Source of the DNA: Patescibacteria group bacterium
GTDB taxonomy: Bacteria > Patescibacteriota > Patescibacteriia > Patescibacteriales > JBAZCA01
Direction of reading: 5' to 3'
DNA: 64,000 nucleotides
NCBI GenBank assembly: GCA_041661505.1
Contig: JBAZUF010000001.1
Location: 369,576 to 433,575, forward strand
Part shown: positions 16,356-53,979 of the stretch, piece by piece
Position numbering within the stretch: the stretch's first letter is position 1
How the letters are laid out: each line of letters opens with the position of its first letter
The notes under the pieces: model-generated
Told to the model about the DNA's origin: nothing
The model's input: the letters and a program-made list of their open reading frames with translations, nothing else
The model's database searches: none
Position numbers and translations under genes: made by a program

Positions 16356-16744
16356 TGGTGGAGATGGCGGGAATCGAACCCGCGTCTAATAATCTACTGT
16401 CTAGCACATTTACGGAAATATTCCGGTTTGTTGTTTAACCGCTATCCTAAAAACCAGACAAAACAAATAGCGGCTAGCCTATTAAGTCTTAATCCGCTGC
16501 CAAAGGCGGGCCGCGGATGCATCCTGATGTTATAACACCCGCTACCGGATATCAGAAATCACCGGGCGAATGGTTGCGGCTTAGTTAAGCTACAACAGGA
16601 GCGAAGGCTGGAACAGCGAAAACGCCGTTGCTAACCTTGCTGGCAAATGATTTTGCACTTATGTTTTTCCGGGTGTTTGGCAGGCTCCCGGAACGCCTGC
16701 ACCGAATACTAGAAGGATGATTATTATCGAATCCGATCATCCCC
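16356..16744 (-). ncRNA. ssrA: tmRNA (ssrA)
   Basis: The minus strand starts GGGGATGATCGGATTCGA and ends ...GGTTCGATTCCCGCCATCTCCACCA, a tRNA-Ala-like acceptor with a G3:U pair. smpB lies 4 nt upstream. A candidate tag frame is gca aaa tca ... gta gct taa (16656-16585), giving AKSFASKVSNGVFAVPAFAPVVA. Confidence 0.85.
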
Positions 16745-40252: not shown

Positions 40253-42400
40253 TTATCGGCTGGCGCCCGAATAGCTTATAGCTCGGATTATACTCCAATC
40301 CTGGTAATTTATCGGCAACCTCCCGTAAACCTGGGCAAAGGTACTTAAAGCCGCCTGTTCCTTTAAAACATCCCTTTGGGGGCGGAGGCCGTAAGCCATG
40401 ATAGTTATGGCGGCGTTATCGTAAGAGTCCAGCATGTTTGGCTGGCGGTGATAGATTTTAACAAAATCCGCTTTTACCGCCTCTTCGCGTTCCGGATTTC
40501 TTTGGGACGGCCAGCGGCCATTAGCGATTTTTCGCGCGTCTTCCCATTCGCTTTCGCTCTCCGGGTTTTTTCCAAAGGCGTCAAAATACGATTTTAAAAT
40601 TTCTTCTTTTTCCGCCGCCGAAAAATTTTCCAAATAATCAACCTTCACTCCCAGCACCTCCCCTTTTTCTTCGCTCGCCTGGTCTTCATTCTTTTTCTCC
40701 TCATTAACGTTTTTATCAGCATTTTTTTCGCTATCATCCTTATCGTCTTTGACAAACTCTTCAATTTTTTCTTTATCCTTACCGCCTTCCTCTATTTTTT
40801 CTTCGTTCACGCTTTCTCCAGCCGGAATTTCATTTTTCACGCCCTCGACTTTGGAAAAATCATTCATTAAGGAATTCCAGTCTTTCCCTAAAGCCGCCGG
40901 AACCGCGTAGGCCGTCGCCCAGATCCTGGTATCTAACGGCGCGTCTTCTTTTTCCAACCCTCCGTCAGCCGCCTGCAAGGCTGCTAAAAAATCTTTCGGA
41001 TCGCTCCCGTTTTTTGCCCAGCCACCAGCATCCTCGCCCAAAGCATTTATCGCCATCAAAACCCAGCTGGTAGAAAAACTGTTGCCAAACCCGCCGTCTT
41101 CTTTTTGGCTCGCAGCCAGATAGCTTTTTGCTTTGGCTATCGCTTCGCCTATTTTCGCGTCCTGGGAAAGCGGACGCAAGGCCTGGATGGCGGCCGCCGT
41201 CAGATCGACTCCGCCAAAACTGCCGCTTGCGTCTTGTCCTGACAAAATATAGTTTACGTCTTTGGCGATTATTTCATCGCCCGCGCCAAACCCGGCATTT
41301 TCCAAAACCAAGAGGGAGAAAATATCGTCATTATTATAATCCGGATCGCCGAACTGGACGCCGTCAAATTGGCTGGTTATTTTTTTTATGTAATCGATTT
41401 TTAACCCGTTGTAAGGATTAATATTTAGAGCCATTAAAGCCATGGCCCGCCGGACATAATCGGTTAAGCCAAAACCGCTATCCGACGCGCCCTGGTAATA
41501 GCTTTTTATTTTTTCTAAATTTTCTCCCGGTCCGTAAGCGCTAAAGGCGATCGCCGCCCAGTCGGTAATCATGGGACTCGCGAACGACCCATCCTCCTTT
41601 TGATTCTTCGCTAAAAATTCTATGGCTTTTCCCAGATCAAAAGCTTTTTCCAAGGGCAAAAAGTATCCCCCGCCGCCGTTAATTCCGCTGTTTATCGGAA
41701 CAGCTTCAGGTACTGGTTCTTCGGCCGGTGCCTCATGCCCGCTAATTACTATGGCCGGGCTGTCTAAAAACCCCGGTTTTTTTCCGTAAACAGTTAAAGG
41801 AGTTGTTGTAGCGGCCGTAAATTTATAGCCTCCGTCGGCCGCTTCATTTTCCGCTCCGTCCACCAAAACCTTACTGCCCGCGGACGGACTCCAAACCGGA
41901 TTCCAGTCCGCGTCCAAGCCAAACTGATAAACTTTTATCTCCACCTCACTGCCGACCGTCGGCGTTGTAGTGGAAGTTTCAATTTTTAAAGGGTTTGTAT
42001 CATAAACAAGGAGCAAAGAATCATTTTCGCTTAATATCTGTTTGTTTAAAGCTAGCATGCCATAGTCCAGGTTTAAAAAATAGGACCAATAGATTCCGTT
42101 GCCGTCTTTATTGTTTTCATAAGTTCCGATTGAATTTAAAAAAGCGTCGCTGCCCCAATAGCTGAAATTATTCAAAAGCCCCGATTGCTCTATGGCGCAC
42201 TTGGCGTTTAAGGTTTCGGTCTCCGCGTCCGGACTTTCTTTGCAGGGGGAAACGCTTATATCTCCATTAAACAAGCTCTCGCCCGCGGTTTCCATTCTTA
42301 AATGAATAGTGGCGGCGCTAACGCCAAACGGCGCGGCTAGGATAAGCGCGGCCAGGATAATAATTCCTGAATTTTTAAAACTGATTTTCTGCGTTTTCAT
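40253..42400 (-). CDS. Secreted protein: DUF4430-like domain plus alpha/alpha-toroid (prenyltransferase/terpenoid-cyclase-like) repeats plus a shared C-terminal repeat module; transcobalamin-like domain set
   Basis: Signal peptide ...APFGVSA. The N-terminal IYWSYFLNLDYGMLALNKQILSENDSLLLVY is a DUF4430-type ending. Toroid repeats are KNQKEDGSFASPMITDWAAIAF, ASQKEDGGFGNSFSTSWVLMAI and ALQAADGGLEKE...RIWATAYAVPAL. The C-terminus is homologous to that of 51053-53788. Confidence 0.6.
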   Translation of the reverse strand: MKTQKISFKNSGIIILAALILAAPFGVSAATIHLRMETAGESLFNGDISVSPCKESPDAETETLNAKCAIEQSGLLNNFSYWGSDAFLNSIGTYENNKDGNGIYWSYFLNLDYGMLALNKQILSENDSLLLVYDTNPLKIETSTTTPTVGSEVEIKVYQFGLDADWNPVWSPSAGSKVLVDGAENEAADGGYKFTAATTTPLTVYGKKPGFLDSPAIVISGHEAPAEEPVPEAVPINSGINGGGGYFLPLEKAFDLGKAIEFLAKNQKEDGSFASPMITDWAAIAFSAYGPGENLEKIKSYYQGASDSGFGLTDYVRRAMALMALNINPYNGLKIDYIKKITSQFDGVQFGDPDYNNDDIFSLLVLENAGFGAGDEIIAKDVNYILSGQDASGSFGGVDLTAAAIQALRPLSQDAKIGEAIAKAKSYLAASQKEDGGFGNSFSTSWVLMAINALGEDAGGWAKNGSDPKDFLAALQAADGGLEKEDAPLDTRIWATAYAVPAALGKDWNSLMNDFSKVEGVKNEIPAGESVNEEKIEEGGKDKEKIEEFVKDDKDDSEKNADKNVNEEKKNEDQASEEKGEVLGVKVDYLENFSAAEKEEILKSYFDAFGKNPESESEWEDARKIANGRWPSQRNPEREEAVKADFVKIYHRQPNMLDSYDNAAITIMAYGLRPQRDVLKEQAALSTFAQVYGRLPINYQDWSIIRAISYSGASR

Positions 42401-43106
42401 ACTTCCAGCTGATTACATCGCCGGGCTTTAATTCATACCCTGAAATTCCAACGTTAGCCGGCTTGTTGTTAATATAGTAAATCCAAAACTCTCCGGTTTT
42501 GGGATTATTTTTTATTCCATTTATTTCTTCAACAAAAAACCCGATTCCTGAATAATTTTTCCCGCTAAACGACAGCGCTCCCTTATTTTTCAGGCTGTCC
42601 ATTAAATCATAAACCGTACTTCTGGGCAAAACCGAGGCGCCGAATTTTTCACTGCCAATATAAAGCGCGGCCGGATACATGTTTTCTGACTGGACAATCT
42701 CTACTTCCTTTTCGCGAGCGCCATCTCCGCCTGGCACAGTTTCATTTACAGCCGAAACAGATTGATTAACCGCCGCGGAACCCGTATCTGACCCAATTTT
42801 ATTGCCCGCCACTTCCTTTTTTGGCAGATTATTCGATTTGTCAGAATCGGCCGAGGTCTTCTTCTCTATATAACCATTCAACCCCGGATTATCGGTTAAT
42901 CCCAAACCATCTTCCGAAACACTGCCTTGAGGCTCTGCGCTTTCTTCGGCGGCCAGATTAGAATCGCCGCTTATTTTTTCCGAGACCGGCAGTTCTTTAT
43001 TGGCGTCCGAATCCAGCCAGCCTGCATTTCCAATAAACGTTAAGGATAAAAAGACGAAAAAAGCCGCCAACACAATCATTCTAAATTTTTTGGAAAAATT
43101 TATCAT
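42375..43106 (-). CDS. Membrane-anchored DUF4430-domain protein
   Basis: N-terminal TM helix. The C-terminal 100 aa, ...TVYDLMDSLKNKGALSFSGKNYSGIGFFVEEINGIKNNPKTGEFWIYYINNKPANVGISGYELKPGDVISWKY, form a typical DUF4430 pattern. Confidence 0.7.
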   Translation of the reverse strand: MINFSKKFRMIVLAAFFVFLSLTFIGNAGWLDSDANKELPVSEKISGDSNLAAEESAEPQGSVSEDGLGLTDNPGLNGYIEKKTSADSDKSNNLPKKEVAGNKIGSDTGSAAVNQSVSAVNETVPGGDGAREKEVEIVQSENMYPAALYIGSEKFGASVLPRSTVYDLMDSLKNKGALSFSGKNYSGIGFFVEEINGIKNNPKTGEFWIYYINNKPANVGISGYELKPGDVISWKYENAENQF

Positions 43107-43336
43107 ACAAAAACCCGCCTTTCGAGCGGGTAAATAAATTCAACTGTTGTAAAGCCAAAGCTTGAACTAAAAAATAAACAAAGGCCTGAATTTATTTTCC
43201 TCTTTGCTCGAAGAGAAAATATTTATTTTAGGCCTTGGTGTTCTGGCTTTCCTTGTTCTTCGCCTAAATAGCGCGGAACAAAAATTACAGTTGCGGCACA
43301 GCGCCCGATTTTCACGGGACTTTCCCAAAGCTATGC
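43107..43336 (-). promoter_or_regulatory. Cobalamin (B12) riboswitch-like leader with two terminator-type hairpins
   Basis: The minus-strand RNA reads UUGGGAAAGUCCCGUGAAAAUCGGGCGCUGUGCCGCAACUGUAA (43326-43285), then the hairpin UUGUUC...GAACAA, then GGAAAGCCAGAACACCAAGGCC (B12-box-like, 43249-43231). CCGCAACUGUAA fits the CCGCnACUGUnA core exactly, judged against my memory of the Rfam RF00174 consensus. Hairpin plus U-run combinations occur at 43169-43236 and 43107-43131, and the second ends 1 nt before the ATG. Confidence 0.65.
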
Positions 43337-43340
43337 ACTA

Positions 43341-43369
43341 ATTATATCTGATTAAAAGTGGCCAGTCAA
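43341..43369 (-). promoter_or_regulatory. Sigma70-like promoter TTGACT-17-TATAAT driving the riboswitch leader
   Basis: The minus strand reads ttgactggccacttttaatcagatataat. Confidence 0.65.
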
Positions 43370-43397
43370 CAATTGCGCATCGCCTTAGTCTTTTAGA

Positions 43398-43406
43398 CCC
43401 CCCCCC
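43398..43406. repeat. Homopolymeric C9 tract just upstream of the hsp20 -35 box
   Basis: agaCCCCCCCCCttgcccc, read directly. Confidence 0.9.
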
Positions 43407-43413
43407 TTGCCCC

Positions 43414-43442
43414 TTGCTACTACCGTAAAAAAATAATATAAT
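43414..43442 (+). promoter_or_regulatory. Sigma70-like promoter TTGCTA-17-TATAAT for hsp20
   Basis: ttgctactaccgtaaaaaaataatataat. Confidence 0.55.
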
Positions 43443-43485
43443 GAAAGCAGGCAAAACTTAAAAAAACTAACCCGGCAATAAAACT

Positions 43486-43956
43486 ATGGCTAATCTTTTC
43501 AAAAAATTAGCGGGTCTCAATAACGCAATTGAAATAACCAACCTGGCCGAAGGAGAAACCGAAGCCGGGGAATGGGGCGAAGAAGGCGCCAAAGAAGACG
43601 GATGGCTGGGTGAAGAATTTGACGAGGGCCAGCTTTCGATTGATGTTTACCAGACTCCGGAAAATATCGTAGTAAAATCGACCATCGCCGGCGTAAAACC
43701 CCAGGATATTGACATTTCAATCAACAATGATATGCTGACCATCCGCGGACGGCGGGAAATGGGAGAAACTGTCCGGGAAGAAAATTACCTTTTCCGGGAA
43801 TGCTACTGGGGCAATTTTTCCCGCTCGGTAATTTTGCCGGTGGAAGTAAAAGCGGAAAAAATCGAAGCTACTTTGGAAAACGGCATTCTTACCATTGTCT
43901 TGCCTAAGGCTAAGACTATGAAGCAGATTTCGGTTAAGGTGAAAGAAATATTATAA
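43486..43956 (+). CDS. Hsp20/alpha-crystallin small heat-shock protein
   Basis: Alpha-crystallin domain with DVYQTPENIVVKSTIAGV, LTIRGRRE and ENGILTIVLPK. Confidence 0.85.
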   Translation: MANLFKKLAGLNNAIEITNLAEGETEAGEWGEEGAKEDGWLGEEFDEGQLSIDVYQTPENIVVKSTIAGVKPQDIDISINNDMLTIRGRREMGETVREENYLFRECYWGNFSRSVILPVEVKAEKIEATLENGILTIVLPKAKTMKQISVKVKEIL

Positions 43957-44014
43957 TGAATTTTCGGATGGGGAAAATCCGCGATACGGGAAAATACCGG
44001 CTAATCTTAAAGGC

Positions 44015-44248
44015 ATGAAAATAATTTTCATAATCGATCGCTTCGAGGGGGAAGAAGCCATTTTAAAAACCGAAGACGGAAAAGAGACGGTAGCCTTTCC
44101 CCGCCGCCTTCTGCCAGCGGCAAACGAGGGGGCGATGATCAATTTTGACTTAAAAACTTTGAAAGAAGCCGAGGAGGAAAAGAGAAAAAAGGCCAAAGAC
44201 GTTTTAAATGAGATTTTAAATCTGGAAGAAGAAAGCCCTGACAATTAA
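44015..44248 (+). CDS. DUF3006-family small protein
   Basis: MKIIFIIDRFEGEEAILKTEDGKETVAFPRRLLPAANEGAMINFDL is a typical DUF3006 pattern. Confidence 0.65.
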   Translation: MKIIFIIDRFEGEEAILKTEDGKETVAFPRRLLPAANEGAMINFDLKTLKEAEEEKRKKAKDVLNEILNLEEESPDN

Positions 44249-44293
44249 GGCCGTCGGGCCGGAAAAAAGGGAAAGAAGCCTGTTTCAAAATCA

Positions 44294-46267
44294 ATGCCGA
44301 GCTTATCCGCCAAATTCGACAGTTGGAAGCAGAACAGATTGCTTAGTTTAGCAGTCGTTTTTTTTATTGCTTTATTAGTTTTTTTGGGGATTCTATGCGC
44401 CGCTATTTTCATTTTTCAAAGCCAGTATAAAGGCAAGGCCTACCCCGGGGTTTACGCCGGCAATATTAATCTGGGCGGAAAAAACCAAAATGAGGTTAAT
44501 TCCATCCTGGCAGAAAAATTTTCCGAGATTGATAAAAACGGCATTCTTTTTTATCGCGGAAACGGCCAAGTTATCGTTTACCCGGCATTGGCGGAAAGCG
44601 CCGATATTGCCGTTAACTTAATCAGTCTCGATCTTGACGCGACCTCAAAAAATATTTTCCAATACGGAAGAGGGGCAAGCTTCTTCTCCGGCCTTTTAGA
44701 TATCTTAAACGCCGCGGTTTACGGGGAAAGAGTTTTTTTAGCCGTCGAAACTAATGATGAAAAGATAAAAGAGCTTTTGGAAAACGGCTTCACTCCCCTA
44801 GAAGTCCAGGCTAAAAGCGCCGGCCTTGAATACGCAAACGGGGCGTTCGCCGTTACCCGGGAGCAGTCCGGCCAGCTGGTAAATTATGACAAGGCTTTAA
44901 ATTCTTTAAAAAGCAATTTAAGGCGGGCCAATTTCTCCCCGATTGAAGTCGAAATTAGCCAAGTTGCCAGTCCCGAAGTAAGCTATAGCGAAGTTTTGGA
45001 AAGCGACGCCATTAACCGCGCGGAAAGCATTATCGGCCTGGCGCCGCTGACTTTAACCTGCAAGGACAAAAAATGGCCAATCGCGAAAGAGGACTTGGCG
45101 GGCTTCCTTGCCTTGAAAAAGGATTATGCTTACTGCCAGGCCAATCCGGCGGAATGCGAAAATACAGCTTTAAGCAAGATTAAGGTTGGAATCGATGAAG
45201 ATAAGTTCAGGGAATACCTGGAAAAAAACGTATCTCCGCAAATCGATATCGCGGCCCAGGATGCCAGGTTTAAAATCGAGAATGGCGCCGTTACCGAATT
45301 CCAGGGATCAAACGACGGACAAAAATTAGACCTGGAAAAAAGTCTGGCTAAAATAGAATTTGAGCTGGCTATCAAAAAAAATAATAAAGTCGAGCTGGCG
45401 GTCGAGGTTACCAAAAGCGGCTTAAGCCAAGAAAGCGTAAACGAATACGGGATAAAAGAAATTGTCGGAATCGGAGAATCGAATTTTGCCGGAAGTCCGA
45501 CCAACCGGAGAAAAAATATCCGTACCGGCGCCAATAAGTTAAATGGAGTATTAATCCGCCCGGGCGAAGAATTCTCACTGCTTAAAGCTTTGGGCAAAAT
45601 TGACGGCACTACCGGATATTTCACCGAGCTGGTAATCAAAGGCAACAAAACCATTCCCGAATACGGCGGCGGGCTGTGCCAAATCGGAACAACGGTTTTC
45701 CGCGCCGCTTTGGCTTCGGGCCTGCCGATTACCGCTCGCGCCAACCATTCTTACCGGGTCCAGTATTATGAGCCGGCCGGAACTGACGCGACGATTTATG
45801 ATCCGGCGCCGGATTTAAAATTTTTAAATGACACGGGAAATTACATCCTTATCCAGTCCCGCATTGAAGGCAATTATTTATATTTTGATTTCTGGGGAGC
45901 TAAAGACGGCCGCCAAATTACGAAGACCAAGCCCGTTATCTACAACATTGTTAAACCCGCGCCCCAGAAAATCGTTGAAACCACCGACTTAAAGCCGGGC
46001 GAAAAAAAGTGCACGGAAAAAGCCCATAACGGCGCGGACGCCTATTTTGATTATAAAGTCATCTATCCTTCGGGCGAGGCAAAAGAAAAAAGATTTTCTT
46101 CCCATTATCGCCCCTGGCAGGCAGTCTGCCTTTTAGGGGTGGAAAAATTATCGGCCGAAGCAAATGTCCAGACTCCCGCCGTCCAGAGCACCGGCTCAAG
46201 TACTATCCAGACTCCCGCACCTGCCGTCCCTTCTTCCGGGGAAACCCCGCCAGTTCCAAGCCAATAA
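44294..46267 (+). CDS. VanW-family protein, membrane-anchored
   Basis: N-terminal TM helix; VanW core GYFTELVIKGNKTIPEYGGGLCQIGTTVFRAALASGLPITARANHSY. Confidence 0.8.
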   Translation: MPSLSAKFDSWKQNRLLSLAVVFFIALLVFLGILCAAIFIFQSQYKGKAYPGVYAGNINLGGKNQNEVNSILAEKFSEIDKNGILFYRGNGQVIVYPALAESADIAVNLISLDLDATSKNIFQYGRGASFFSGLLDILNAAVYGERVFLAVETNDEKIKELLENGFTPLEVQAKSAGLEYANGAFAVTREQSGQLVNYDKALNSLKSNLRRANFSPIEVEISQVASPEVSYSEVLESDAINRAESIIGLAPLTLTCKDKKWPIAKEDLAGFLALKKDYAYCQANPAECENTALSKIKVGIDEDKFREYLEKNVSPQIDIAAQDARFKIENGAVTEFQGSNDGQKLDLEKSLAKIEFELAIKKNNKVELAVEVTKSGLSQESVNEYGIKEIVGIGESNFAGSPTNRRKNIRTGANKLNGVLIRPGEEFSLLKALGKIDGTTGYFTELVIKGNKTIPEYGGGLCQIGTTVFRAALASGLPITARANHSYRVQYYEPAGTDATIYDPAPDLKFLNDTGNYILIQSRIEGNYLYFDFWGAKDGRQITKTKPVIYNIVKPAPQKIVETTDLKPGEKKCTEKAHNGADAYFDYKVIYPSGEAKEKRFSSHYRPWQAVCLLGVEKLSAEANVQTPAVQSTGSSTIQTPAPAVPSSGETPPVPSQ

Positions 46268-46270
46268 AAA

Positions 46271-46390
46271 AAGGCCGGATTAAGCGGGCAGGCAAGAAGT
46301 TTCCATCACCATTTCCCCAGTTAAAGAACCGGGTAAACGTGACGAGAAAATCCCCATGCTTGTCGTGCCTGGCCCGCTTAATACGGCCTT
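46271..46390. repeat. 120-nt element bounded by 24/25-nt inverted repeats (long rod-like hairpin)
   Basis: aaggccggattaagcgggcaggca (46271-46294) pairs with tgcctggcccgcttaatacggcctt (46366-46390): 23 bp with one mismatch and one bulge. An interior hairpin is cccagtt-aaag-aaccggg. An A8 run precedes the element, which gives a T-run after the hairpin on the minus strand. Confidence 0.65.
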
Positions 46391-46530
46391 TGCACTATTA
46401 ATTACACTATTTTACTATATATTTGTTTGCTATAATGCAATGTTTTCGCTATTGCCACGAGAACTTACCAATATAGCACACATATTTGGGGTTGTCAAGC
46501 GCAAGAGGAAAAATACTAATGTTTTCTTAT

Positions 46531-47322
46531 ATGAATCATAAAATTATTACCAGCCGGGAAAATCCGAAAATAAAAGAAATAATCAAGCTGAAATCAAGCC
46601 GCAAAGAGCGCGAAGCCAAGGCCTTGGCTGTCGCCGAAGGCTACCGGGAATTAAATTTAGCCTTGCAAGCTGAACATAATATCGATTCCCTCTTTTTTTG
46701 CCCCGAATTTTTAAAGGGCAGGCCAATATTTAATCTTCCACCAGACAAACTGATTGAGGTTTCGCCGTCGGTCTTTGAAAAAATTTCTTTTCGCGAAAAT
46801 CCGGACGGCGTCCTGGCAATACTGCGCTTAACCCCTCCTTCATTAGCCGGCATTAAACTTTCAAAAAATCCACTGGTAATAGTTTTGGAAGCGGTAGAAA
46901 AGCCCGGCAACCTCGGGGCGATCCTGCGGACCGCCGACGCGGCCGGTGTCGACGCGGTTTTGATTTCTGATCCGAAGACCGATTTATATAATCCCAATGT
47001 CATTCGCGCGAGCCAGGGAACGATTTTTACTACGCGGGTCGCGGCTGGTTCGCGCGGCGAGATTCTTGCGTTCCTGGGATCCAAAGGCATTTCCCTCATA
47101 GCTACGACGCCGGGAGCAAAGAAACTTTACACCCAGATTGATTTAAAAAAACCGACCGCAATTTTAATGGGAACCGAAGACCGGGGCTTGTCAGACGCCT
47201 GGCTAAAAGCGGCCGATGAAAAAGTTAAAATCCCCATGTACGGAAAAATCGATTCATTGAATGTTTCCGTTTCCGCCGCCGTAATAGTCTATGAAGCTTT
47301 GCGCCAGCGAACGCGGGATTAA
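46531..47322 (+). CDS. TrmH/SpoU-family RNA 2'-O-methyltransferase
   Basis: VIVLEAVEKPGNLGAILRTADAAGVD and IPMYGKIDSLNVSVSAAVIVYE. The start is ATG 46531 or 46519 (the track starts further upstream). Confidence 0.8.
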   Translation: MNHKIITSRENPKIKEIIKLKSSRKEREAKALAVAEGYRELNLALQAEHNIDSLFFCPEFLKGRPIFNLPPDKLIEVSPSVFEKISFRENPDGVLAILRLTPPSLAGIKLSKNPLVIVLEAVEKPGNLGAILRTADAAGVDAVLISDPKTDLYNPNVIRASQGTIFTTRVAAGSRGEILAFLGSKGISLIATTPGAKKLYTQIDLKKPTAILMGTEDRGLSDAWLKAADEKVKIPMYGKIDSLNVSVSAAVIVYEALRQRTRD

Positions 47323-47502
47323 GCTTCTGCCTCCGCCATTAATTGACTAACAGCACTTTCTTTGTTAATATATTTTTGACCCGTAAAGGGATATTTTTAT
47401 TTTTCAGAGGACATTAACCATAGCTTAAAATCATTAAGCTGGAGTTAAGTAAAGAAAAGTACTGGAAATCAGGATGTGGCAAAGAAAAAATAAAAACTAC
47501 CT

Positions 47503-47558
47503 GGAGTGGTAGCTCAGTTGGTTGCCTGCCTGCCGGCAGGCAGGGAGCGCTGCCCTGT
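47503..47558 (+). pseudogene. Displaced tRNA-Asp 5' fragment (nt 1-35) interrupted by the 20-nt palindrome CCTGCCTGCCGGCAGGCAGG
   Basis: ggagtggtagctcagttggtt G [palindrome 47525-47544] gagcgctgccctgt. Homology to the tRNA ends after anticodon position 35. Confidence 0.8.
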
Positions 47559-47559
47559 T

Positions 47560-47874
47560 ATGTTCTATATTTATGCTCTGTTATTTGAATCAGGCAGAAT
47601 ATACGTCGGTATGACGTCTGATTTAGAAACCCGAATAAAAGATCATAAACGTGGAAAGACAAAATCCACAAAAAACAGAGGAAATTTCCAAGTCGCAATT
47701 CTTGGGGAAGCAGAAAACCGGACAAACGCACGCCAAAAAGAAAAGTACTGGAAATCAGGATGTGGCAAAGAAAAAATAAAAACTACCTGGAGTGGTAGCT
47801 CAGTTGGTTACCTGCCTGCCGGCAGGCAGGGAGCGCTGCCCTGTTATGTTCTATATTTATGCTCTGTTATTTGA
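47560..47874 (+). CDS. GIY-YIG nuclease-family protein (YhbQ-like), copy 1, with read-through extension because the stop is disrupted
   Basis: MFYIYALLFESGRIYVGMTSDLETRIKDHKRGKTKSTKNRG... has the GIY...YVG motif. The palindrome destroys the TAG used by copy 2, so the frame continues for 21 codons. Confidence 0.65.
   Translation: MFYIYALLFESGRIYVGMTSDLETRIKDHKRGKTKSTKNRGNFQVAILGEAENRTNARQKEKYWKSGCGKEKIKTTWSGSSVGYLPAGRQGALPCYVLYLCSVI
47789..47844 (+). pseudogene. Second displaced tRNA-Asp 5' fragment with the same 20-nt palindrome (47811-47830)
   Basis: ggttA[cctgcctgccggcaggcagg]GAGCGC is an exact insertion relative to ggttAGAGCGC of the intact tRNA. Confidence 0.8.
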
Positions 47875-48097
47875 ATCAGGCAGAATATACGTCGGTATGA
47901 CGTCTGATTTAGAAACCCGAATAAAAGATCATAAACGTGGAAAGACAAAATCCACAAAAAACAGAGGAAATTTCCAAGTCGCAATTCTTGGGGAAGCAGA
48001 AAACCGGACAAACGCACGCCAAAAAGAAAAGTACTGGAAATCAGGATGTGGCAAAGAAAAAATAAAAACTACCTGGAGTGGTAGCTCAGTTGGTTAG
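47846..48097 (+). CDS. GIY-YIG nuclease-family protein (YhbQ-like), copy 2; the last 8 codons lie inside tRNA-Asp
   Basis: 83 aa. The ORF ends ...KTTWSGSSVG-TAG, where tgg agt ggt agc tca gtt ggt tag covers tRNA nucleotides 1-23. Confidence 0.75.
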   Translation: MFYIYALLFESGRIYVGMTSDLETRIKDHKRGKTKSTKNRGNFQVAILGEAENRTNARQKEKYWKSGCGKEKIKTTWSGSSVG

Positions 48098-48148
48098 AGC
48101 GCTGCCCTGTCACGGCAGAGGTCGCGGGTTCGAGCCCCGTCCGCTCCG
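48075..48148 (+). tRNA. tRNA-Asp (anticodon GUC), CCA not encoded
   Basis: ggagtggtagctcagttggttagagcgctgccCTGTCACggcagaggtcgcgggttcgagccccgtccgctccg. Confidence 0.9.
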
Positions 48149-48160
48149 CAATAACTTTAA

Positions 48161-48184
48161 ACAGGCTTGATGGCCTGTTTTTTG
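48161..48184 (+). terminator. Rho-independent terminator after tRNA-Asp
   Basis: acaggc-ttgatg-gcctgt followed by ttttttg. Confidence 0.8.
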
Positions 48185-48190
48185 TTGTCA

Positions 48191-48219
48191 TTGACTATAA
48201 CGAACAAATATGGTAATCT
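48191..48219 (+). promoter_or_regulatory. Promoter TTGACT-17-TAATCT with a TG extension
   Basis: ttgactataacgaacaaatatggtaatct. Confidence 0.45.
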
Positions 48220-48270
48220 AATCGGCTGGCCATTTTTATATCATAAACCTCAAACACAGGAGTTCCTCCC

Positions 48271-48435
48271 ATGAGAGTGAAAGAATTTTTCGCAAGTTTG
48301 GGACTCATAATTGTTGGGATCGTAATTTTTCTGGCGATCCTTTTGACGGTCGCGGCCCAGCCTGCCGAGGAACCAGAACTGGTAGGCGGCAAGCCGGTAG
48401 CGAGTCTGGCCTGCAACGCAGGCAGACCTACATGA
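48271..48435 (+). CDS. Small single-pass membrane protein (54 aa), not in the ORF track
   Basis: The AGGAG-containing stretch caggagttcctccc precedes the ATG. The product is MRVKEFFASLGLIIVGIVIFLAILLTVAAQPAEEPELVGGKPVASLACNAGRPT. It has its own promoter and terminator. Confidence 0.5.
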   Translation: MRVKEFFASLGLIIVGIVIFLAILLTVAAQPAEEPELVGGKPVASLACNAGRPT

Positions 48436-48472
48436 ACCTTTAAATGATTAGCCTGGGCGTTGCCCGGGCCAC

Positions 48473-48517
48473 ACCCTTGCCGGAATTTTTATTCTTTCCG
48501 GCAAGGGTTGTTTTTTT
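48473..48517 (+). terminator. Rho-independent terminator
   Basis: acccttgccgga-N12-tccggcaagggt followed by tgttttttt. Confidence 0.8.
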
Positions 48518-48618
48518 ATAACCGAAAAAATTACCAAATAGATGTAAGGCACACGCAAGTTGCGGGAAACGGACCCAAAAGTCCCTTACCGTACAAAGCG
48601 CCTTGCATCCTTTTTTTG

Positions 48619-48646
48619 TTGCCAAAATATTTAATAGCATTATAAT
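48619..48646 (+). promoter_or_regulatory. Promoter TTGCCA-16-TATAAT; the -10 ends 7 nt before the greA ATG (leaderless-type arrangement)
   Basis: ttgccaaaatatttaatagcattataattaaaaccATG. Confidence 0.5.
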
Positions 48647-48653
48647 TAAAACC

Positions 48654-49148
48654 ATGAGAGTGCCAATTAGAAAACCAGGAAAATATACCCATCTAAAGCC
48701 AGACCCCCATCTGACCGAGGAAAAATATAATGAGCTCAAGTCAAAACTGGTTCGCATGTTAAAGTCGCGTCCGCCCCTGATTGAAGAAGTAAAATTCCAT
48801 GCCCTAAACGGCGACTTCTCGGAAAACGCCGCTTACCAGATTGCCAAAGGGCGCCTCCGAGGCTTAAACCAGCGCATAATTGAGCTGGAAGACCATCTTA
48901 AACAGGCAATAATTATCAGCCCGAGAAATAACTTTCGGATTGAGGCCGGGCACAAGGTAACGGTTTTAGTCCGGGGGAAAGAAAAAATTTATAAAATCCT
49001 TGGCTCTTCCGAAACTGACCCGGACAAGGGAATAATCTCCCGCAATTCTCCGATAGGCTCGGCGCTCTTAGGCCGCAAGGCCGGCGACCGGGTAAAAGTG
49101 CGCTTAGCCGAAAAGGAAGTAATATATGAGATTTTAAAAATTGAATAA
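48654..49148 (+). CDS. greA: GreA-family transcription elongation factor
   Basis: The C-terminal domain has ISRNSPIGSALLGRKAGDRVKV, and the N-terminal part is a coiled-coil. I prefer ATG 48654. Confidence 0.75.
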   Translation: MRVPIRKPGKYTHLKPDPHLTEEKYNELKSKLVRMLKSRPPLIEEVKFHALNGDFSENAAYQIAKGRLRGLNQRIIELEDHLKQAIIISPRNNFRIEAGHKVTVLVRGKEKIYKILGSSETDPDKGIISRNSPIGSALLGRKAGDRVKVRLAEKEVIYEILKIE

Positions 49149-49177
49149 GGACGTTTCAAGACTAGACCATAAAAAAA

Positions 49178-49207
49178 CAGGGCCAGTTCAAGGCTCTGTT
49201 TTTTTAT
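49178..49207 (+). terminator. Rho-independent terminator after greA
   Basis: cagggcc-agttcaa-ggctctg followed by ttttttt. Confidence 0.7.
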
Positions 49208-49328
49208 TTTGCTGGAGTGGGCATATTATCATAAAAAGGGCATGCCAGCTTATTACCTCCGGCTCTTGACATTAATGTTAGAATAATATAACATATAAAT
49301 AGTTAGAAATAATTAACCTTAAAAACCT

Positions 49329-49889
49329 ATGACTCTTAAAAAATTCCGGGCGCTAAAAATTGTCGTGGCCGCCATCCTCTCCGCCTTAGTAGCCCAGGCG
49401 GTAATCATCAACAATTTTTATCTCGCGGCCGCGGGCGTATTAATCGCCATGGCCCTAATTTTGATAATGCGCCGCCAGGTAAAAGAAGTAGTGGCGGATG
49501 AGAGGGATTATGAGATTGCCGGCAAAGCGGCCCGCTGGTCATTAACCATCTTTTCCATCATTGGCTCAATAGCAGTTTTTGTTTTACTGGCCCTCCGGAG
49601 CGAAAACCCTATTTTTGAGGCCGTCGGTTCGGCCTTAGCCTATTCGATTTGCTCCCTGCTTCTTTTAAATGGTTTGATCTTTAGCTATTTAAATAAATCC
49701 TTTACCGGCGGACGGAAAACCCTATATTTTATCCTGGCCGCGGTTTTGATTTTAATCTTTACCGTTGCCGGGTTAAGGCTATTTTCCGGAGAAGACGGCT
49801 GGATCTGTGTAAACGGCCAATGGGTTGAGCACGGCCATCCAAGATCCCCGATGCCGGATTCGGTCTGTGGCAAAGCCAGCGGACAATAA
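49329..49889 (+). CDS. DUF2178-family membrane protein
   Basis: Four TM segments, [17 protein letters not shown], and an adjacent XRE regulator, which is a typical pairing. Confidence 0.65.
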
Positions 49890-49893
49890 TCTT

Positions 49894-50088
49894 ATGACTA
49901 ATAGAATCAAGGAATTAAGGCAAAAATTCGGACTCACCCAGGAAGAACTGGCGAACATCGCCGGGGTCAGGCGGGAAACTATTATTTTTTTGGAACAAGG
50001 AAAATATAATCCTTCCTTAAAATTGGCGCATGACGTGGCGCGGGCGCTAAAGGCGAAAATTGATGACGTTTTTATATTCGGTAAATAA
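49894..50088 (+). CDS. XRE-family helix-turn-helix transcriptional regulator
   Basis: [52 protein letters not shown]. Confidence 0.85.
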
Positions 50089-50134
50089 AAAAACGCCTTA
50101 ATTAAGGCATTTATTTTCCAATAATTTTTCAGTT

Positions 50135-50902
50135 TTAATCTTTCTTCGCGAGCCCGTCAGCCGGGTTAAGCTTATAATAGTTGATGCCGACGTCATTAAT
50201 CCATTTTTTTACGCTGGCCTTGTCAAATCCTCTGCAGCTATAGCCGCATTTCCAAACAACCATCCCGGCCGGGTTTTTTACGCCTTGCTTTATGAGCGAG
50301 TCAATCCGGTTGCCGACGACGCTTATCGCCTGGGCGGGAGAGTCAAAGCAGGAGTAGCCGCTTCTAGTCGGATTTTCCCGGCCGCGGTATCCCCAATAGT
50401 TATAGCAATCGACATTGTTGCTTTTTCTCGGCGCATGAAAGCCGAACTCGCTTTCTTTTAAGGCGATGCCGACTATATAAGCGGCGGTAGCCCGGTCTCT
50501 CTTAGCTATCTCATCGGTCATGGCCTCCATAGGAGTGCCTTTGATAATCAAAAGGACTTCCCTTTTTAATTTCTCGGCTCTTTTCTGTTCAGCTTCAGCC
50601 GCCGAAATTCGCCCGTCCTCGGTTGAATCGGCATCCTGGGGGTCAGAATCAAAAGTGCTGGCTAAAGCCACCTCTTTCTCGCCTTCTATCCCATTGGCGT
50701 CCGGAGACGGAGCGGCTGAAAACGGGGAAAAGAAAATAAAAAACGTAATACCGGCCAAAAGGTGGGTAAATAACAGATTAGTTCTCTTTAAGGATGGCTT
50801 GGGCGATGCGCTTATAATAGCGGCTTTATTTGATTTTCTGCGGTTTTTTAGCTTCTTTTTCTTAAGCCGTCTTTTGCGCTCGCTGTTAGTTATTCTTTTC
50901 AT
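50135..50902 (-). CDS. Hypothetical membrane-anchored secreted protein (possible cell-wall hydrolase-like domain)
   Basis: Basic N-terminus plus a TM helix. The C-terminal domain IALKESEFGFHAPRKSNNVDCYNYWGYRG is only weakly reminiscent of lysozyme or transglycosylase E-S motifs. Confidence 0.35.
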   Translation of the reverse strand: MKRITNSERKRRLKKKKLKNRRKSNKAAIISASPKPSLKRTNLLFTHLLAGITFFIFFSPFSAAPSPDANGIEGEKEVALASTFDSDPQDADSTEDGRISAAEAEQKRAEKLKREVLLIIKGTPMEAMTDEIAKRDRATAAYIVGIALKESEFGFHAPRKSNNVDCYNYWGYRGRENPTRSGYSCFDSPAQAISVVGNRIDSLIKQGVKNPAGMVVWKCGYSCRGFDKASVKKWINDVGINYYKLNPADGLAKKD

Positions 50903-51052
50903 TTATTGGCTAATATTAGTCAATTAAAAAGAATAGCCTTTGGGGCTATCCCTAACTTGAAGTATCTTAGCAGATTTTAGAAAAAAATCAACCCTTGAGC
51001 AAGCGGCCGCCGCGGGGCGGCTATTCCCAACCGAATAAATAATAAAGCGCTC

Positions 51053-53788
51053 TTACCTCTTTGATCCGCTGTAGGCTATGGCGTGAATTATGTCCCAATC
51101 AAAAGAGGATTTTGGCTGGCGCCCATAGACGGCCATAAAAGTCTTTATCGAGCTGGCTTCGCTCCCCAGGTTTCTCTTGCCCGGCTTTGGCCCATAGGCG
51201 ATTATCAAAACGGCGGCATCGTCGCTCAAATCGCCGGGCTTTGGATTCCTTTTATAAATTTTTTTAAATATTTTTTTGGCGGCAGACTCTTTGTAAGGGT
51301 CTTTTTTAATTTTTTCTCCCAATATAACCGCCGCCGGTTTTTCTGCGGCTATAAATTCCGGCTTTAGAAGCGGTTGATCGGCGCTATCTATGGCTTTACT
51401 CTTATTATTGCCGCTTGCTCCATCGGCAATATTCTCGCCTCTGGTTTTATCATCACCGCTTCCACTCCCGCCAGAACCTTCTCTTTCCCTGTCTGGACTT
51501 TGGGCCGGCCGGCCGCCTCCATTATAGGGTGAGGCTGGCAAAGACGGGGAAATAACAATGTCTGGCGGCGGGAGCGTGGTAAACGCCTGAATTGAGCTCG
51601 TCGCGATATCACCGTATTCATCAACCGATTCAACGAAAAAATAATAAGTCGTGCTCGCGGACAAATTCGCGAGCAGGCTGTTGTGGCTGACAGTTAGCTG
51701 GCCGTCAAAAACCGAATTGTCAAAATCTATAGTCGAAGTTGCATAGGCGACTTTGCTTTTGGCCGGCTTGTCAGTAAGCCAGGCAACGATTGCCGAGTCC
51801 GCGGTAGTTGACGCGATTTGGATATTGGAAATTACGGGAGGGGCTAAGCTTTCTAAGGCGCTTAATGCGTTTATTCTTTTGCCGGTAACAATTTTTCCGT
51901 CAAGCGGCGGCAAAGAATCGCCGGTTTCTAAAATTAAATCCTTAACCTTGTCCGCGTCCAATCCGGGCTTATAACCCCAAATCAAAGCCGCTAGGCCGGC
52001 CGCCTGCGGAGCGGCCGTAGAAGTCCCCTGCATAAAACCGTATTGTTCATCCGATCCGTCGGAAAAAAATTCTTTGATTATTTTAATGTTATCGATATAG
52101 CAGCCCCCATAATCATTATCCTGCCCGTCGGAAACCCAGCGGAAGCGGAATCTAAAATTGGAAGTTAAAAATCCAGCCGGAAGGATCGCGTCTTTAAAAT
52201 GGTAGGCGGCGCTCCCGGCTGGATCCGGAGGCGATTCGGAATTTAGGATGTCCAGGGTCGGTTCGTCGAATTTGCTTCCAAAAGACGGAATAAGGTTAAA
52301 CTCCTGGAAAGTAGCGCCGTCAGAACTAATTTCTAAAGCCATGTAATCGGTCCAGCGGTCAGTCCGGTACTCCGTATCGCAAGCCGCCCAAAAATCAATT
52401 TTGGCTCCGGCGGCGCCGTTTAAATCAATTACCGGCGAGGAAGCAAAGTAATTTGAATCGCCGTCATATGGATTTTGCCGCAAGTCTCCGAATAAAACAA
52501 AGTCTGTAGAACTCGCTATATCATAGATTCCCATATTTCCGCCCGCCTCCCAGCCGCCGGGCAAATTGGGCGGATTAGCGGTTTGAAAATCTTCCGAAAA
52601 CGGCGTGGTAGAGGCCGACCCGGCGATGGTGCTAAAAATATTTTTTCCCGGCGCGGCGACGTCAACCGAAAGATTGCCATAGTCGGAAAACGAAGCCAGG
52701 CTGTCATCCTGGCCAGTCGCCGCGACAACGATGACGTTTTTTAATCCCGGCCCGGCCGATGAATCGACTCGGAACCCGGCCGGGTAAATCATTGAGCCGA
52801 AGTCGCCTGAATCATGGTTTTGGGCTTGGTTTCCCGCGGCAACGACAAAAATTCCCGGGAAATCCGCGATGGCATCGTACAAAAACTGGTCCAGGCAATC
52901 GTGCGTATAGGCTCCGTTTTGGAAATCGTCGCCCCAGCTGGCATTAATAATTTTCGCGTTATTTTGTTTGGCAAAATGGATGGCTTTGACAATTTCGGCC
53001 GTGGTAAAGGAAGTTTTTAGGGCCATAATCTTTGCACGGGGAGCGACGCCGGTTATGCCTTTGGCGTTATTCTTCGCGGCGGCGATAATTCCGGCGATAT
53101 GGGTGCCGTGGAAACTTCCGGTTGGAATCGGCGTTCGGTCATTATCTTCAAAATCATAGCCGTGGCTGCATCCGCCTAACGCATTACCGTTCTCGTCCGC
53201 GCAGCCAGTCCCGTCCCACATGCTGGCCGCCAGATCCGGATGATTATAAGCAACTCCGGTATCAATTACCGCGACGACTGCTTCGCCGTTTTGTCCTTCG
53301 CTAATTTTCCAGGCTTCATTAGCCTTAATATCCGCGCCATCGATTCCTGAAATTCCGCCGACGTTTTGCCCGAAGTTCTCTATGGCCCAAAGATAATCTT
53401 TATAAGGGTCGTTGGAATCGATTGAAAGCGGATGATATCGGTAGTTGGGCTGGGCCAGCTCAATATTCGGATCTTTTTTTAATTCCGCTACTTTTTCTTC
53501 GACAGACTTACTATCTTTAATCTTCAAAACTTCGCTGTTTTCTTCAGCCAAGTCCCCGTTTCGAGCAAGGAATTTTCCCCCGGCCAAATCCGAAGCCGCG
53601 GTTTGGCCCGAAGGAGTGTCCAAATCAATTTTACTTTCTTTATATTTAACCAGCACTTCCCCTTCGATATAATTTTTGCTTTCAGAAGGGGCGGCGGCCA
53701 GAGAAAAATCGCCCCCAAACAGAAAAACGGCGGCTAAAAAAATTATCGCCCAATTTTTTTTCAGACTGTAATTTTTTTCGGCGTCCAT
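51053..53788 (-). CDS. Secreted subtilisin-like (S8) serine protease with a large C-terminal extension
   Basis: Catalytic triad contexts VAVIDTGVAYNHPDL, HGTHIAGIIAA and GTSTAAPQAAGLAALI. An FN3-like segment is also present, and the terminal 75 aa are homologous to the terminus of 40253-42400. Confidence 0.85.
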   Translation of the reverse strand: MDAEKNYSLKKNWAIIFLAAVFLFGGDFSLAAAPSESKNYIEGEVLVKYKESKIDLDTPSGQTAASDLAGGKFLARNGDLAEENSEVLKIKDSKSVEEKVAELKKDPNIELAQPNYRYHPLSIDSNDPYKDYLWAIENFGQNVGGISGIDGADIKANEAWKISEGQNGEAVVAVIDTGVAYNHPDLAASMWDGTGCADENGNALGGCSHGYDFEDNDRTPIPTGSFHGTHIAGIIAAAKNNAKGITGVAPRAKIMALKTSFTTAEIVKAIHFAKQNNAKIINASWGDDFQNGAYTHDCLDQFLYDAIADFPGIFVVAAGNQAQNHDSGDFGSMIYPAGFRVDSSAGPGLKNVIVVAATGQDDSLASFSDYGNLSVDVAAPGKNIFSTIAGSASTTPFSEDFQTANPPNLPGGWEAGGNMGIYDIASSTDFVLFGDLRQNPYDGDSNYFASSPVIDLNGAAGAKIDFWAACDTEYRTDRWTDYMALEISSDGATFQEFNLIPSFGSKFDEPTLDILNSESPPDPAGSAAYHFKDAILPAGFLTSNFRFRFRWVSDGQDNDYGGCYIDNIKIIKEFFSDGSDEQYGFMQGTSTAAPQAAGLAALIWGYKPGLDADKVKDLILETGDSLPPLDGKIVTGKRINALSALESLAPPVISNIQIASTTADSAIVAWLTDKPAKSKVAYATSTIDFDNSVFDGQLTVSHNSLLANLSASTTYYFFVESVDEYGDIATSSIQAFTTLPPPDIVISPSLPASPYNGGGRPAQSPDREREGSGGSGSGDDKTRGENIADGASGNNKSKAIDSADQPLLKPEFIAAEKPAAVILGEKIKKDPYKESAAKKIFKKIYKRNPKPGDLSDDAAVLIIAYGPKPGKRNLGSEASSIKTFMAVYGRQPKSSFDWDIIHAIAYSGSKR

Positions 53789-53979
53789 GGGTTTCGTCTT
53801 ATGGAAATAAAGCCCGCGGATTGGTATAATTCATTACTAAATTATCGCCCAAAATAATTAATTTTTAATTAAGGACGGGCTGGAAAATATAAAAAAATCT
53901 ATTAAATCTTGGCACTTTTTTGCATTTTTTTCGGCTTTACTGCTATAATAAAACGGTGTAGAAATTTACTTGAAAGCTC

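Follow-up and report, generated by a model that had tools for sequence, protein, structure and literature searches.

A candidate selfish cassette of a single-domain GIY-YIG nuclease gene and hairpin-tagged tRNA fragments at tRNA genes of Patescibacteria and Bacteroidota

Why should an intact tRNA gene be preceded by tandem copies of its own 5' half, each joined to a small nuclease gene? The question is raised by a 64,000-nt stretch of DNA (hereafter the window) from a Patescibacteria group bacterium (assembly GCA_041661505.1, contig JBAZUF010000001.1, positions 369,576 to 433,575), in which an array of GIY-YIG nuclease open reading frames (ORFs) and tRNA-Asp fragments runs into the tRNA-Asp gene itself. 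Single-domain GIY-YIG proteins form thousands of clusters, and almost nothing is known of their cellular role apart from that of Ssn in Neisseria. Here we tie one large GIY-YIG clade to a readable genomic outcome, split tRNA genes with hairpin-tagged remnants. We consider with moderate confidence that the window holds a resident selfish cassette, in which a single-domain GIY-YIG gene sits in a tRNA transcription unit, duplicates part of the tRNA and is accompanied by a hairpin in the displaced copy.

The array (47451-48096, +) is the sole one reported by Tandem Repeats Finder, with a period of 286 bp, 2.3 copies, 99% matches and a score of 1285, and it ends in an intact tRNA-Asp(GTC) at 48075-48149 (+), found by ARAGORN and by Rfam (RF00005, 69.4 bits). 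These programs bear out an earlier reading of the bare letters (the original prediction), which had described a 286-bp unit repeated approximately 2.3 times upstream of an intact tRNA-Asp. A direct comparison also upholds its observation of a one-base difference, the full units 47451-47736 and 47737-48022 being distinguished only by G at 47524 versus A at 47810. Each full unit is composed of a GIY-YIG ORF together with linear nucleotides 1-22 and 23-36 of tRNA-Asp, and a 73-nt segment comprising the ORF tail and the tRNA 5' end is present in three copies at 100% identity. The tRNA-Asp anticodon occupies linear positions 35-37 and, as had been read by eye, the homology of the fragments stops between its second and third bases, the canonical 35/36 position; the nuclease ATG begins one base past this junction. 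A 20-nt perfect palindrome, CCTGCCTGCCGGCAGGCAGG, is placed between linear nucleotides 22 and 23 in both fragments, that is, between the A and the G of the TAG within GGTTAGAGC, again as originally described. Within the window it occurs only at 47525 and 47811, where the chance expectation is none even with three mismatches allowed.

Read from the left, the array begins with a 0.3 unit consisting of the last 52 nt of an ORF (codons 60-77; 47451-47502, +) followed by a tRNA fragment, and in tblastn residues 60-83 of the query match 47451-47522 at 100% identity. The first displaced tRNA-Asp 5' fragment (47503-47558, +) comprises nucleotides 1-22 (47503-47524, the last base changed from A to G), the hairpin (47525-47544) and nucleotides 23-36 (47545-47558). 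The second (47789-47844, +) has the same composition, with nucleotides 1-22 at 47789-47810, the hairpin at 47811-47830 and nucleotides 23-36 at 47831-47844. ORF copy 2 (47846-48097, +; NCBI MFA6171240.1) encodes 83 aa, and its final seven sense codons and its stop, the TAG of GGTTAGAGC, are supplied by nucleotides 1-23 of the intact tRNA-Asp. ORF copy 1 (47560-47874, +; NCBI MFA6171239.1) is a read-through product of 104 aa because the hairpin in fragment 2 destroys its stop codon, so the 83-aa ORF that had been assigned to each unit holds for copy 2 and not for copy 1. An exact protein look-up of the 104-aa product matched no record, and that of the 101-aa version led to the second assembly described below.

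Signals found by consensus scan only frame the array on both sides. A promoter-like site (TTGACC-16-TATTTT; 47376-47403, +) lies 5' of it, within an intergenic segment (47356-47439) that is 82% conserved with an orthologous locus; this is probably the native tRNA-Asp promoter, which would now drive the fragments, the ORFs and the tRNA jointly. On the 3' side, a hairpin followed by a T run (48159-48190, +) resembles an intrinsic terminator that would close the transcription unit.

Both array ORFs match the Pfam GIY-YIG family PF01541 (E ~1e-13; 8.8e-14 for copy 2), and the score of 52 bits against a curated cut-off of 22.6 establishes family membership for the GIY-YIG superfamily only. Residues R25, H29 and E61 are invariant among 43 homologues, in at least 90% of which Y5 and Y15 are kept. 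The AlphaFold2 model (mean confidence, pLDDT, 83) has a GIY-YIG fold with a disordered tail at residues 80-83, and its Foldseek matches include I-TevI (1ln0, TM 0.57), the UPF0213 protein 1zg2, Slx1 and UvrC. The nearest solved relatives are the UPF0213 proteins BH0048 (E 3.4e-6) and EF2693. Approximately 75 of the 83 aa form the single domain; the protein stops eight residues past it in the tRNA-encoded disordered tail, with no extra domain and no C-terminal DNA-binding domain. Modular GIY-YIG homing endonucleases of the I-TevI/Seg type, SegB included, have a separate DNA-binding domain, and this type is excluded for the window protein on that ground. Two further matches carry homing-related names, namely a weak one to TIGR01453, 'group I intron endonuclease' (23.5 bits, cut-off 56; N-terminal domain only), and one in PHROGs to 'homing endonuclease' (4e-8). 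Between the window and the orthologous locus the ratio of nonsynonymous to synonymous change (pN/pS) in the ORF is 0.17, and the nuclease is thus under purifying selection, maintained while the tRNA fragment is not.

The arrangement in the window is one instance of a large family. Homologues of the window protein are approximately 80-90 aa in length and derive mostly from Patescibacteria, and a profile search of 1.84 billion representatives returned 1159 clusters at E<=1e-10 and 8607 at E<=1e-3. The set of loci compared here (individual sequences carry L numbers) comprises 22 from species-representative genomes and 80 from metagenomes. Across approximately 100 related loci, mostly from Patescibacteria and some from Bacteroidota, a nuclease core of ~75 aa lies against an intact tRNA on the same strand. 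Of the 54 ORF copies in the close subfamily, 43 either run into or adjoin a tRNA start on the same strand (Met, Asp, Asn, Val or Ile). Among distant members (36-48% identity), of which those from named genomes are Bacteroidota, 26 of 52 copies abut a tRNA. Eleven of these 26 lie upstream of the tRNA, and the remaining 15 are mirrored, with an intact tRNA-Cys, Leu or Trp just 5' of the ORF and a 3' fragment of that tRNA just 3' of it. The conserved end of the core (...GCGKEKLK) falls 2-12 nt short of tRNA +1 in all tRNA types, and the C-termini of homologues resemble translated tRNA 5' ends (e.g. WSGSSVG, VEQSGSSSGS, GWSNGSSRGS), some with a translated palindrome. The abutting tRNA recurs beyond the other end of the ORF as a partial copy, usually a 100% match broken by at least one short hairpin. 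This anatomy, an ORF in a host gene with a duplicated end and one functional gene, fits the window and approximately 60 loci.

A mobile cassette that regenerates its tRNA had been proposed for the window, and the family supplies the structural part of that proposal, its members being located in or against tRNA genes, with an intact tRNA kept and, across the ORF from it, a displaced partial copy; movement of the cassette and of the hairpin is what we infer from it. Entry at the anticodon does not extend to the family as a rule, the junction between fragment and ORF leader ranging from tRNA position ~15 to 69. Displaced and intact tRNA copies are mostly 100% identical within a locus and give no phylogenetic signal on a foreign origin of the gene end. 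The site occupied also varies, for in a conserved Met-Met-Asp cluster the cassette precedes Met1 in most loci and Asp in L003, L070 and L096. Pseudogenised copies are frequent (L016, L017, L021, L070), and diverged tandem or stacked copies occur in L112, L121, L118 and L070; in L118 a tRNA-Gln copy interrupted by many hairpins stands between members of two subfamilies. Tandem arrays are a normal outcome for this nuclease family. The family is large, tRNA-associated and without an earlier description that we could find; the literature searched, which did not cover subscription journals, contained no account of tRNA-splitting GIY-YIG cassettes or of a 20-nt hairpin in tRNA loops.

Two loci record further kinds of accumulation. 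In L070 the displaced tRNA-Asp fragment of a newer cassette is directly preceded, at 420-666, by a divergent and older GIY-YIG pseudogene interrupted by an in-frame stop, which indicates that successive occupants were stacked on one tRNA gene. In L064 (2452-2657), two tandem 102-nt units without an ORF lie downstream of an intact tRNA-Met, each consisting of a spacer and a 5'-truncated tRNA-Met copy with a hairpin at 35/36, an arrangement that mirrors the array in the window.

The palindrome proved to be a recurrent element. The 405 kb of family loci contain the canonical 20-mer 61 times and, in 55 further places, one of 34 variants, and nearly all examined copies lie within tRNA-like sequence at three places (insertion point shown by a hyphen): the 3' edge of the D loop, GGT(T)A-GAGC; anticodon position 35/36 of tRNA-Met, CTCA-TAACC; and the T loop, GGTTC-(G/A)AATCC. 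Contiguous tRNA segments flank 46 inserts, of which 24 measure exactly 20 nt and neither remove nor duplicate a tRNA base; 15 of these exact inserts lie at 35/36 of tRNA-Met. Variants compensated in the register 1-6/11-16 include TCTGCC-TACC-GGCAGA-CAGG, CCTGTC-TGCC-GACAGG-CAGG and TCCGCC-AGCC-GGCGGA-CAGG. Double-change (compensatory) cells number 9 against 3.2 ± 1.4 in shuffles, a value reached in none of 500, and the full 10-bp palindrome register has fewer compensations than shuffles. The conserved entity is a 6-bp stem, a 4-nt loop and a 4-nt tail on one strand, and therefore a folded single strand rather than a symmetric duplex site; we regard this covariation as supportive rather than conclusive, the sample being small and the variants related. 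Other subfamilies have different hairpins in like places, such as CCCGGC-loop-GCCGGG in tRNA-Cys fragments. For 85 ORFs with enough flanking sequence, a hairpin was found within 200 nt upstream of 33, within 450 nt downstream of 22 and on both sides of 16, counts that are minima, some upstream copies being masked by read-through ORF calls. Such read-through is visible in proteins, 28 of 220 fetched sequences containing a translated palindrome (PACRQA, LPAGRQ or CLPAGR, from the three reading frames), mostly N-terminal and derived from the upstream fragment.

Three functions had been suggested for the palindrome, namely a scar conferring immunity to cleavage, an insulator hairpin and an independent miniature insertion; the last fits best a conserved hairpin found in many tRNA fragments and elsewhere. 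Its placement inside the ORF stop codon does not generalize, and a rule that the palindrome always lies at the stop is rejected by L003, where the stop lies elsewhere, and by L015 and L018. Several individual copies depart from the common pattern. Hairpin-bearing tRNA fragments without an adjacent ORF occur in L001 (at 6040) and L010 (at 2576), and L062 (1405-1444) has two tandem copies, 40 nt in all, at one 35/36 site of a tRNA-Met fragment. A tRNA-Met-like gene in L047 (~2240-2340; otherwise full length) and L024 (~8570-8660) has the 20-nt hairpin in its variable loop, where it might be tolerated by analogy with class II tRNAs. In the window the palindrome stem has the same sequence as the anticodon stem of tRNA-Asp, and the 3' arm of the palindrome (GGCAG; 47539-47559 and 47825-47845) could pair with the retained 5' strand of that stem (CTGCC).

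Two further sequences bear on the history of the array. The metagenome contig L058 is the orthologous locus in a relative at 90% identity, with one ORF copy, an identically placed palindrome of the same sequence and a junction likewise at 35/36; in addition to the intergenic conservation noted above, the cassette and tRNA are 90.7% and the ORF proteins 89% identical. Its fragment has decayed through two G>A changes and an extra insert of 44-45 nt, and the sequence upstream of that fragment has no significant similarity to an ORF-tail remnant. From this shared occupancy, the cassette would be old at the locus. The contig L139 (ENA ERZ27249449, k141_970548) is an independent MEGAHIT assembly of the window genome, with the same synteny, 100% identity over 2305 nt upstream and one mismatch in 2361 nt from the last unit onward. 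At 1946-2360 it holds 1.3 units, namely the ORF-tail remnant, a G-allele fragment with its palindrome, one ORF and the intact tRNA. The basic cassette of fragment, palindrome, ORF and tRNA is common to both assemblies, as is the 52-nt ORF-tail remnant. The second assembly thus confirms the cassette, with 1.3 rather than 2.3 units, and copy number is either polymorphic or assembler-dependent.

The comparison nevertheless argues for a real duplication in the window lineage, because the ORF-tail remnant is present in both assemblies without a counterpart in L058 and because the junction of GGTTA with the palindrome occurs only in the two-copy molecule; in reads, GGTTACCTGCC is the sequence that would mark a real two-copy array. 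The distribution of G and A before the hairpin would most simply reflect a 2.3-copy state losing one unit to give L139. The array had been attributed to repeated invasion or unequal crossing-over. Since L058 has a single copy and L139 1.3 units, and the copies in the window are near identical, we read it as a recent local amplification, a tandem duplication or deletion between the 73-nt repeats, and not as repeated invasion. That one genome yielded 1.3 units in one assembly and 2.3 in another suggests ongoing rearrangement of the locus.

The junction position in the window coincides with a known insertion site. Self-splicing group I introns are found at 35/36 of Patescibacteria tRNA-Asn and tRNA-Asp, an experimentally validated site; most are without homing endonuclease genes, and in the survey concerned the 35/36 introns carry HNH endonuclease genes only (PMC13011429). 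In the nuclease family the fragment ends at 35/36 in the window, in L058 and in Asn loci, and every anticodon-loop hairpin in tRNA-Met lies there. In L014 a group I intron (3258-3503; RF00028, 55.8 bits) interrupts a tRNA-Asn at 35/36 (exons 3222-3265 and 3512-3550), and the GIY-YIG cassette directly upstream of it has a fragment that likewise ends at 35/36. A free-standing nuclease gene and an ORF-less intron may here be engaged in 'collaborative homing', and the family is a possible partner for those Patescibacteria tRNA introns that have no homing endonuclease gene of their own. With L014 as positive control, RF00028 gave no match in the window between 46000 and 50000 at E<=1, and no intron was found in 20 family loci without a tRNA. 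The recurrence suggests a shared site that is break-prone or targeted by the nuclease. It is a lead and not a rule, because other tRNA-Asp cassettes have junctions at ~30, 41 and 43, and those at tRNA-Met range over ~15-69.

Among known systems, the closest in format is Ssn (SsnA of Neisseria meningitidis; CDD cd10448; Chenal et al. 2025, PMC11893778). Ssn proteins, ~94 aa long, consist of a single GIY-YIG domain; they bind and cleave only single-stranded DNA, beside hairpin repeats flanking their own genes, and have a role in Neisseria transformation (PMC11893778). The window protein is likewise a single domain of the ~80-95 aa class without a DNA-binding domain. In both systems the gene is flanked by short GC-rich hairpins with a 6-7-bp stem, a 4-nt loop and a non-palindromic tail, the hairpin variants co-vary with lineage, and the layout of hairpin, gene and hairpin resembles an insertion sequence. 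In contrast, the hairpin family of the window (CCTGCC-TGCC-GGCAGG-CAGG) falls outside the published SRM consensus, its members lie inside partial tRNA copies at exact loop positions, and the gene is fused to a tRNA gene; tRNA, Patescibacteria and Bacteroidota are not mentioned in PMC11893778. The likeness is one of protein format and flanking hairpins, the nearest solved structures being instead those of UPF0213. At one locus, L097, two canonical Neisseria-type (NTS-like) Ssn motifs occur in inverted orientation (2320-2357, +, CGTCATTCC...GGAATCCAG; 2379-2406, -, TGTCATACCCGCGCAGGCGGGTATCCAG) just upstream of a tRNA-Asn fragment, a 20-nt hairpin and a GIY-YIG ORF.

The gene arrangement follows the logic of mobile endonuclease ORFs (mORFs) of fungal mitochondria, which bring a replacement gene end and displace the native one (Allomyces atp6; Glomus atp6, atp9, cox2 and nad3; PMC3630166). 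As in the cassette, an endonuclease ORF, in some cases GIY-YIG, is inserted in a host gene that stays functional, the native end is left as a displaced duplicate, and the ORF may be without its own stop codon and in phase with host sequence. The mitochondrial elements differ in occupying protein-coding genes and replacing the 3' end, whereas a bacterial tRNA gene and usually its 5' part are involved here; their endonucleases are large, with DNA-binding regions, and no hairpin insertion in the displaced copy is reported. SegB of phage T4 shares the position of a free-standing GIY-YIG gene among tRNA genes and favours its own transmission through cleavage of a related genome in the tRNA gene region (PMC2330249), but it is phage-borne and located between intact tRNA genes, with no tRNA duplication or hairpin. 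The Patescibacteria group I introns (Nakagawa et al. 2026, PMC13011429) share with the cassette the phylum, the tRNAs and the 35/36 phosphodiester; the cassette differs in having no ribozyme, its insertion being resolved by DNA duplication and not by RNA splicing, and that work reports neither GIY-YIG genes nor tRNA fragments. In REP/RAYT and IS200/IS605 systems (in part from PMC11893778), short hairpin repeats with an asymmetric tail likewise flank one small nuclease gene and imply single-strand recognition. These systems use HUH/Y1 transposases, none of which is present at the window locus, whereas GIY-YIG enzymes are hydrolytic. We know of no insertion of REPs into tRNA loops, nor of their splitting a host gene. 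The tRNA-splitting cassette is a widespread arrangement with traits of Ssn and mORFs and a tRNA neighbourhood that recalls SegB.

The resident selfish cassette that we favour would operate as follows. One intact, functional tRNA abuts the ORF, which in the window subfamily runs into the tRNA and borrows its stop codon, and the native tRNA promoter would express the two together. Spread would occur by homology-dependent insertion into the cognate, highly conserved tRNA gene with the tRNA halves as homology arms, either through homing after a nuclease-made break or through recombination of incoming DNA. The hairpin may serve as the cognate single-strand recognition element of the nuclease, as the SRM/NTS repeats do for Ssn, a proposal made by analogy with Ssn and from the Ssn-type motifs upstream of the cassette in L097. 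Breaks at the hairpin, together with flanking direct repeats, would drive local duplications and deletions, and the array would have grown or shrunk by unequal recombination or replication slippage between the 73-nt repeats. From what is known of tRNA 5' maturation and trans-translation, a stop codon inside the tRNA would mean that RNase P processing leaves a non-stop message, a predicted built-in limit on nuclease expression.

Several observations weigh against this reading. The cleavage activity of the nuclease and its target are putative, and the protein has no DNA-binding domain to give homing specificity. The intact tRNA beside the ORF retains the putative target, so that simple self-immunity is inapplicable, and the variable junction between fragment and ORF is not predicted by a fixed cleavage site. 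No vehicle is apparent, as 50,697 phage records held no family match and plasmids a single weak one; viral contigs likewise gave one weak match. The related tRNA-Asp locus compared, L058, holds a single-copy cassette, L139 is also occupied, and no strictly orthologous empty tRNA site was among the recovered loci. A simple unequal crossover from a 1.3-copy state predicts GGTTG followed by the hairpin, and the middle unit has GGTTA. The SRM consensus HGTCWY..YYVSBRH..WNVSBRG..RNCYNB has 2 matches in the 405 kb against 0-4 in shuffles, none overlapping the 20-nt hairpin, and this chance-level result rejects the published Ssn motif as a description of that hairpin. Finally, the exact 20-mer is present in 35 IMG/VR contigs (L023-L057), mostly in GC-rich, non-tRNA sequence with no GIY-YIG gene nearby, contexts that reject a confinement of the hairpin to tRNA or GIY-YIG surroundings. 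Several of the IMG/VR copies (e.g. L025 at 1660, L041 at 3391 and L031 at 8396) are flanked on both sides by direct repeats of 7-14 nt, which suggests that the palindrome may have an independent life as a mini-repeat.

A related account, which we consider fairly unlikely as a whole, treats the hairpin itself as a minimal mobile element that the single-domain GIY-YIG clade would move in trans, with drive-like remodelling of tRNA genes as the consequence. The pair would be a hydrolytic counterpart of REP/RAYT, inserting with single-nucleotide precision and no target duplication into the single-stranded D loop, anticodon (35/36) and T loop of tRNA genes, the anticodon target being shared with the Patescibacteria group I introns. 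Survival of the nuclease cassette would depend on an uninterrupted tRNA that it always brings along or restores, and the pair, by breaking one tRNA copy and supplying another, would remodel tRNA loci in Patescibacteria and Bacteroidota. An improbable alternative dispenses with mobility altogether and supposes a domesticated system, with single-stranded DNA at heavily transcribed tRNA loci as the substrate of an Ssn-like nuclease and its hairpins, whose effect might be, for example, to modulate transformation or recombination; the tRNA fragments would then be by-products of local rearrangement provoked by the hairpins. The purifying selection on the ORF, its vertical inheritance at the window locus and the role of Ssn in Neisseria transformation (PMC11893778) would all be expected of such a system, as would the hairpin-bearing fragments of L001 and L010 and the tandem fragment arrays of L064, none of which is joined to an ORF. 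It accounts poorly, however, for the frequent pseudogenes, the stacking of different subfamily members at one tRNA in L118, the occupation of different tRNAs within one conserved Met-Met-Asp cluster and the distribution across phyla, which are the marks of a selfish element cycling through invasion and decay.

Other alternatives concern the origin of the window array itself. That a site-specific homing element cuts tRNA-Asp at 35/36, inserts with a replacement 5' half and builds the array through repeated invasion is unlikely. Position 35/36 is indeed the junction in the window, in L058 and in the Asn loci, the site of all tRNA-Met anticodon-loop hairpins (15 exact cases) and a validated intron site of the tRNAs for Asn and Asp (PMC13011429), and the tRNA that follows the cassette in L014 carries such an intron. 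Against repeated invasion stand units identical save for one base, a single copy in L058 and 1.3 units in L139; the 52-nt ORF tail of the leftmost unit is not produced by invasion at 35/36, and junctions elsewhere in tRNA-Asp and tRNA-Met lie at other positions. A very improbable alternative would see the locus as a degenerate group I intron with its intron-encoded GIY-YIG endonuclease in the tRNA-Asp anticodon loop, in keeping with a 5' fragment that ends exactly at 35/36, an ORF that starts 1 nt later and the TIGR01453 and PHROGs matches. Against it, Rfam finds no intron at 46000-50000, the ORF takes up 252 of the 286 bp of the unit and leaves no room for a ribozyme, a tRNA 5' end and not a 3' exon follows the ORF, most family members have other junctions, and the 35/36 introns surveyed carry only HNH genes. 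It is also doubtful, though less so, that the second full copy is an assembly product, with one real ORF and two fragment alleles (G or A before the hairpin) threaded in tandem. A perfect 286-bp repeat is hard for short reads, and the MEGAHIT assembly runs straight through 1.3 units with the G allele only. Yet the junction of GGTTA with the hairpin must exist in reads, the 463-kb contig with two ORFs is carried by both NCBI and JGI, the ORF-tail remnant in both assemblies proves an earlier duplication, diverged tandem copies at other loci show that arrays arise naturally, and the G/A pattern is more simply accounted for by loss of a unit (2.3 to 1.3) than by gain of one.

Beyond the window locus, the association makes the 35/36 site, and the hairpin as embedded in tRNA sequence, testable substrates for these nucleases. 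Pseudo-fragments of tRNAs and over-extended 'GIY-YIG' gene calls in Patescibacteria and Bacteroidota assemblies could be explained by it as well.

Within the window the cassette is confined to the one site. Other tRNA 5'-half duplications and palindrome copies, which the original prediction suggested looking for, are absent from the rest of the 64 kb, as is any further GIY-YIG copy, and such duplications were found instead beyond the window, at the related loci described above. Its neighbours encode HSP20, VanW, a SpoU methyltransferase, GreA, DUF2178 and subtilase proteins. In agreement with the statement that no integrase or transposase is present, no integrase, transposase or recombinase domain was found in ORFs from 40253 to 54564 (~6 kb on either side of the array), and PADLOC defence-system models gave no meaningful match. 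A tRNA-targeting integrative element with a tyrosine or serine integrase is rejected by the lack of recombinase domains and by a repeat that corresponds to the tRNA 5' part and not to a 3'-derived attachment (att) site. The SpoU-family RNA methyltransferase gene (46486-47322) lies immediately 5' of the cassette in the window and in L139, and probably also in L058; a GIY-YIG-TrmH fusion has been noted (PMC1564403), and the proximity here is probably a coincidence. Elsewhere in the window, a tmRNA gene (16356-16744, -) with a long predicted tag, AKSFASKVSNGVFAVPAFAPVVA, is relevant to the non-stop nuclease mRNA predicted above.

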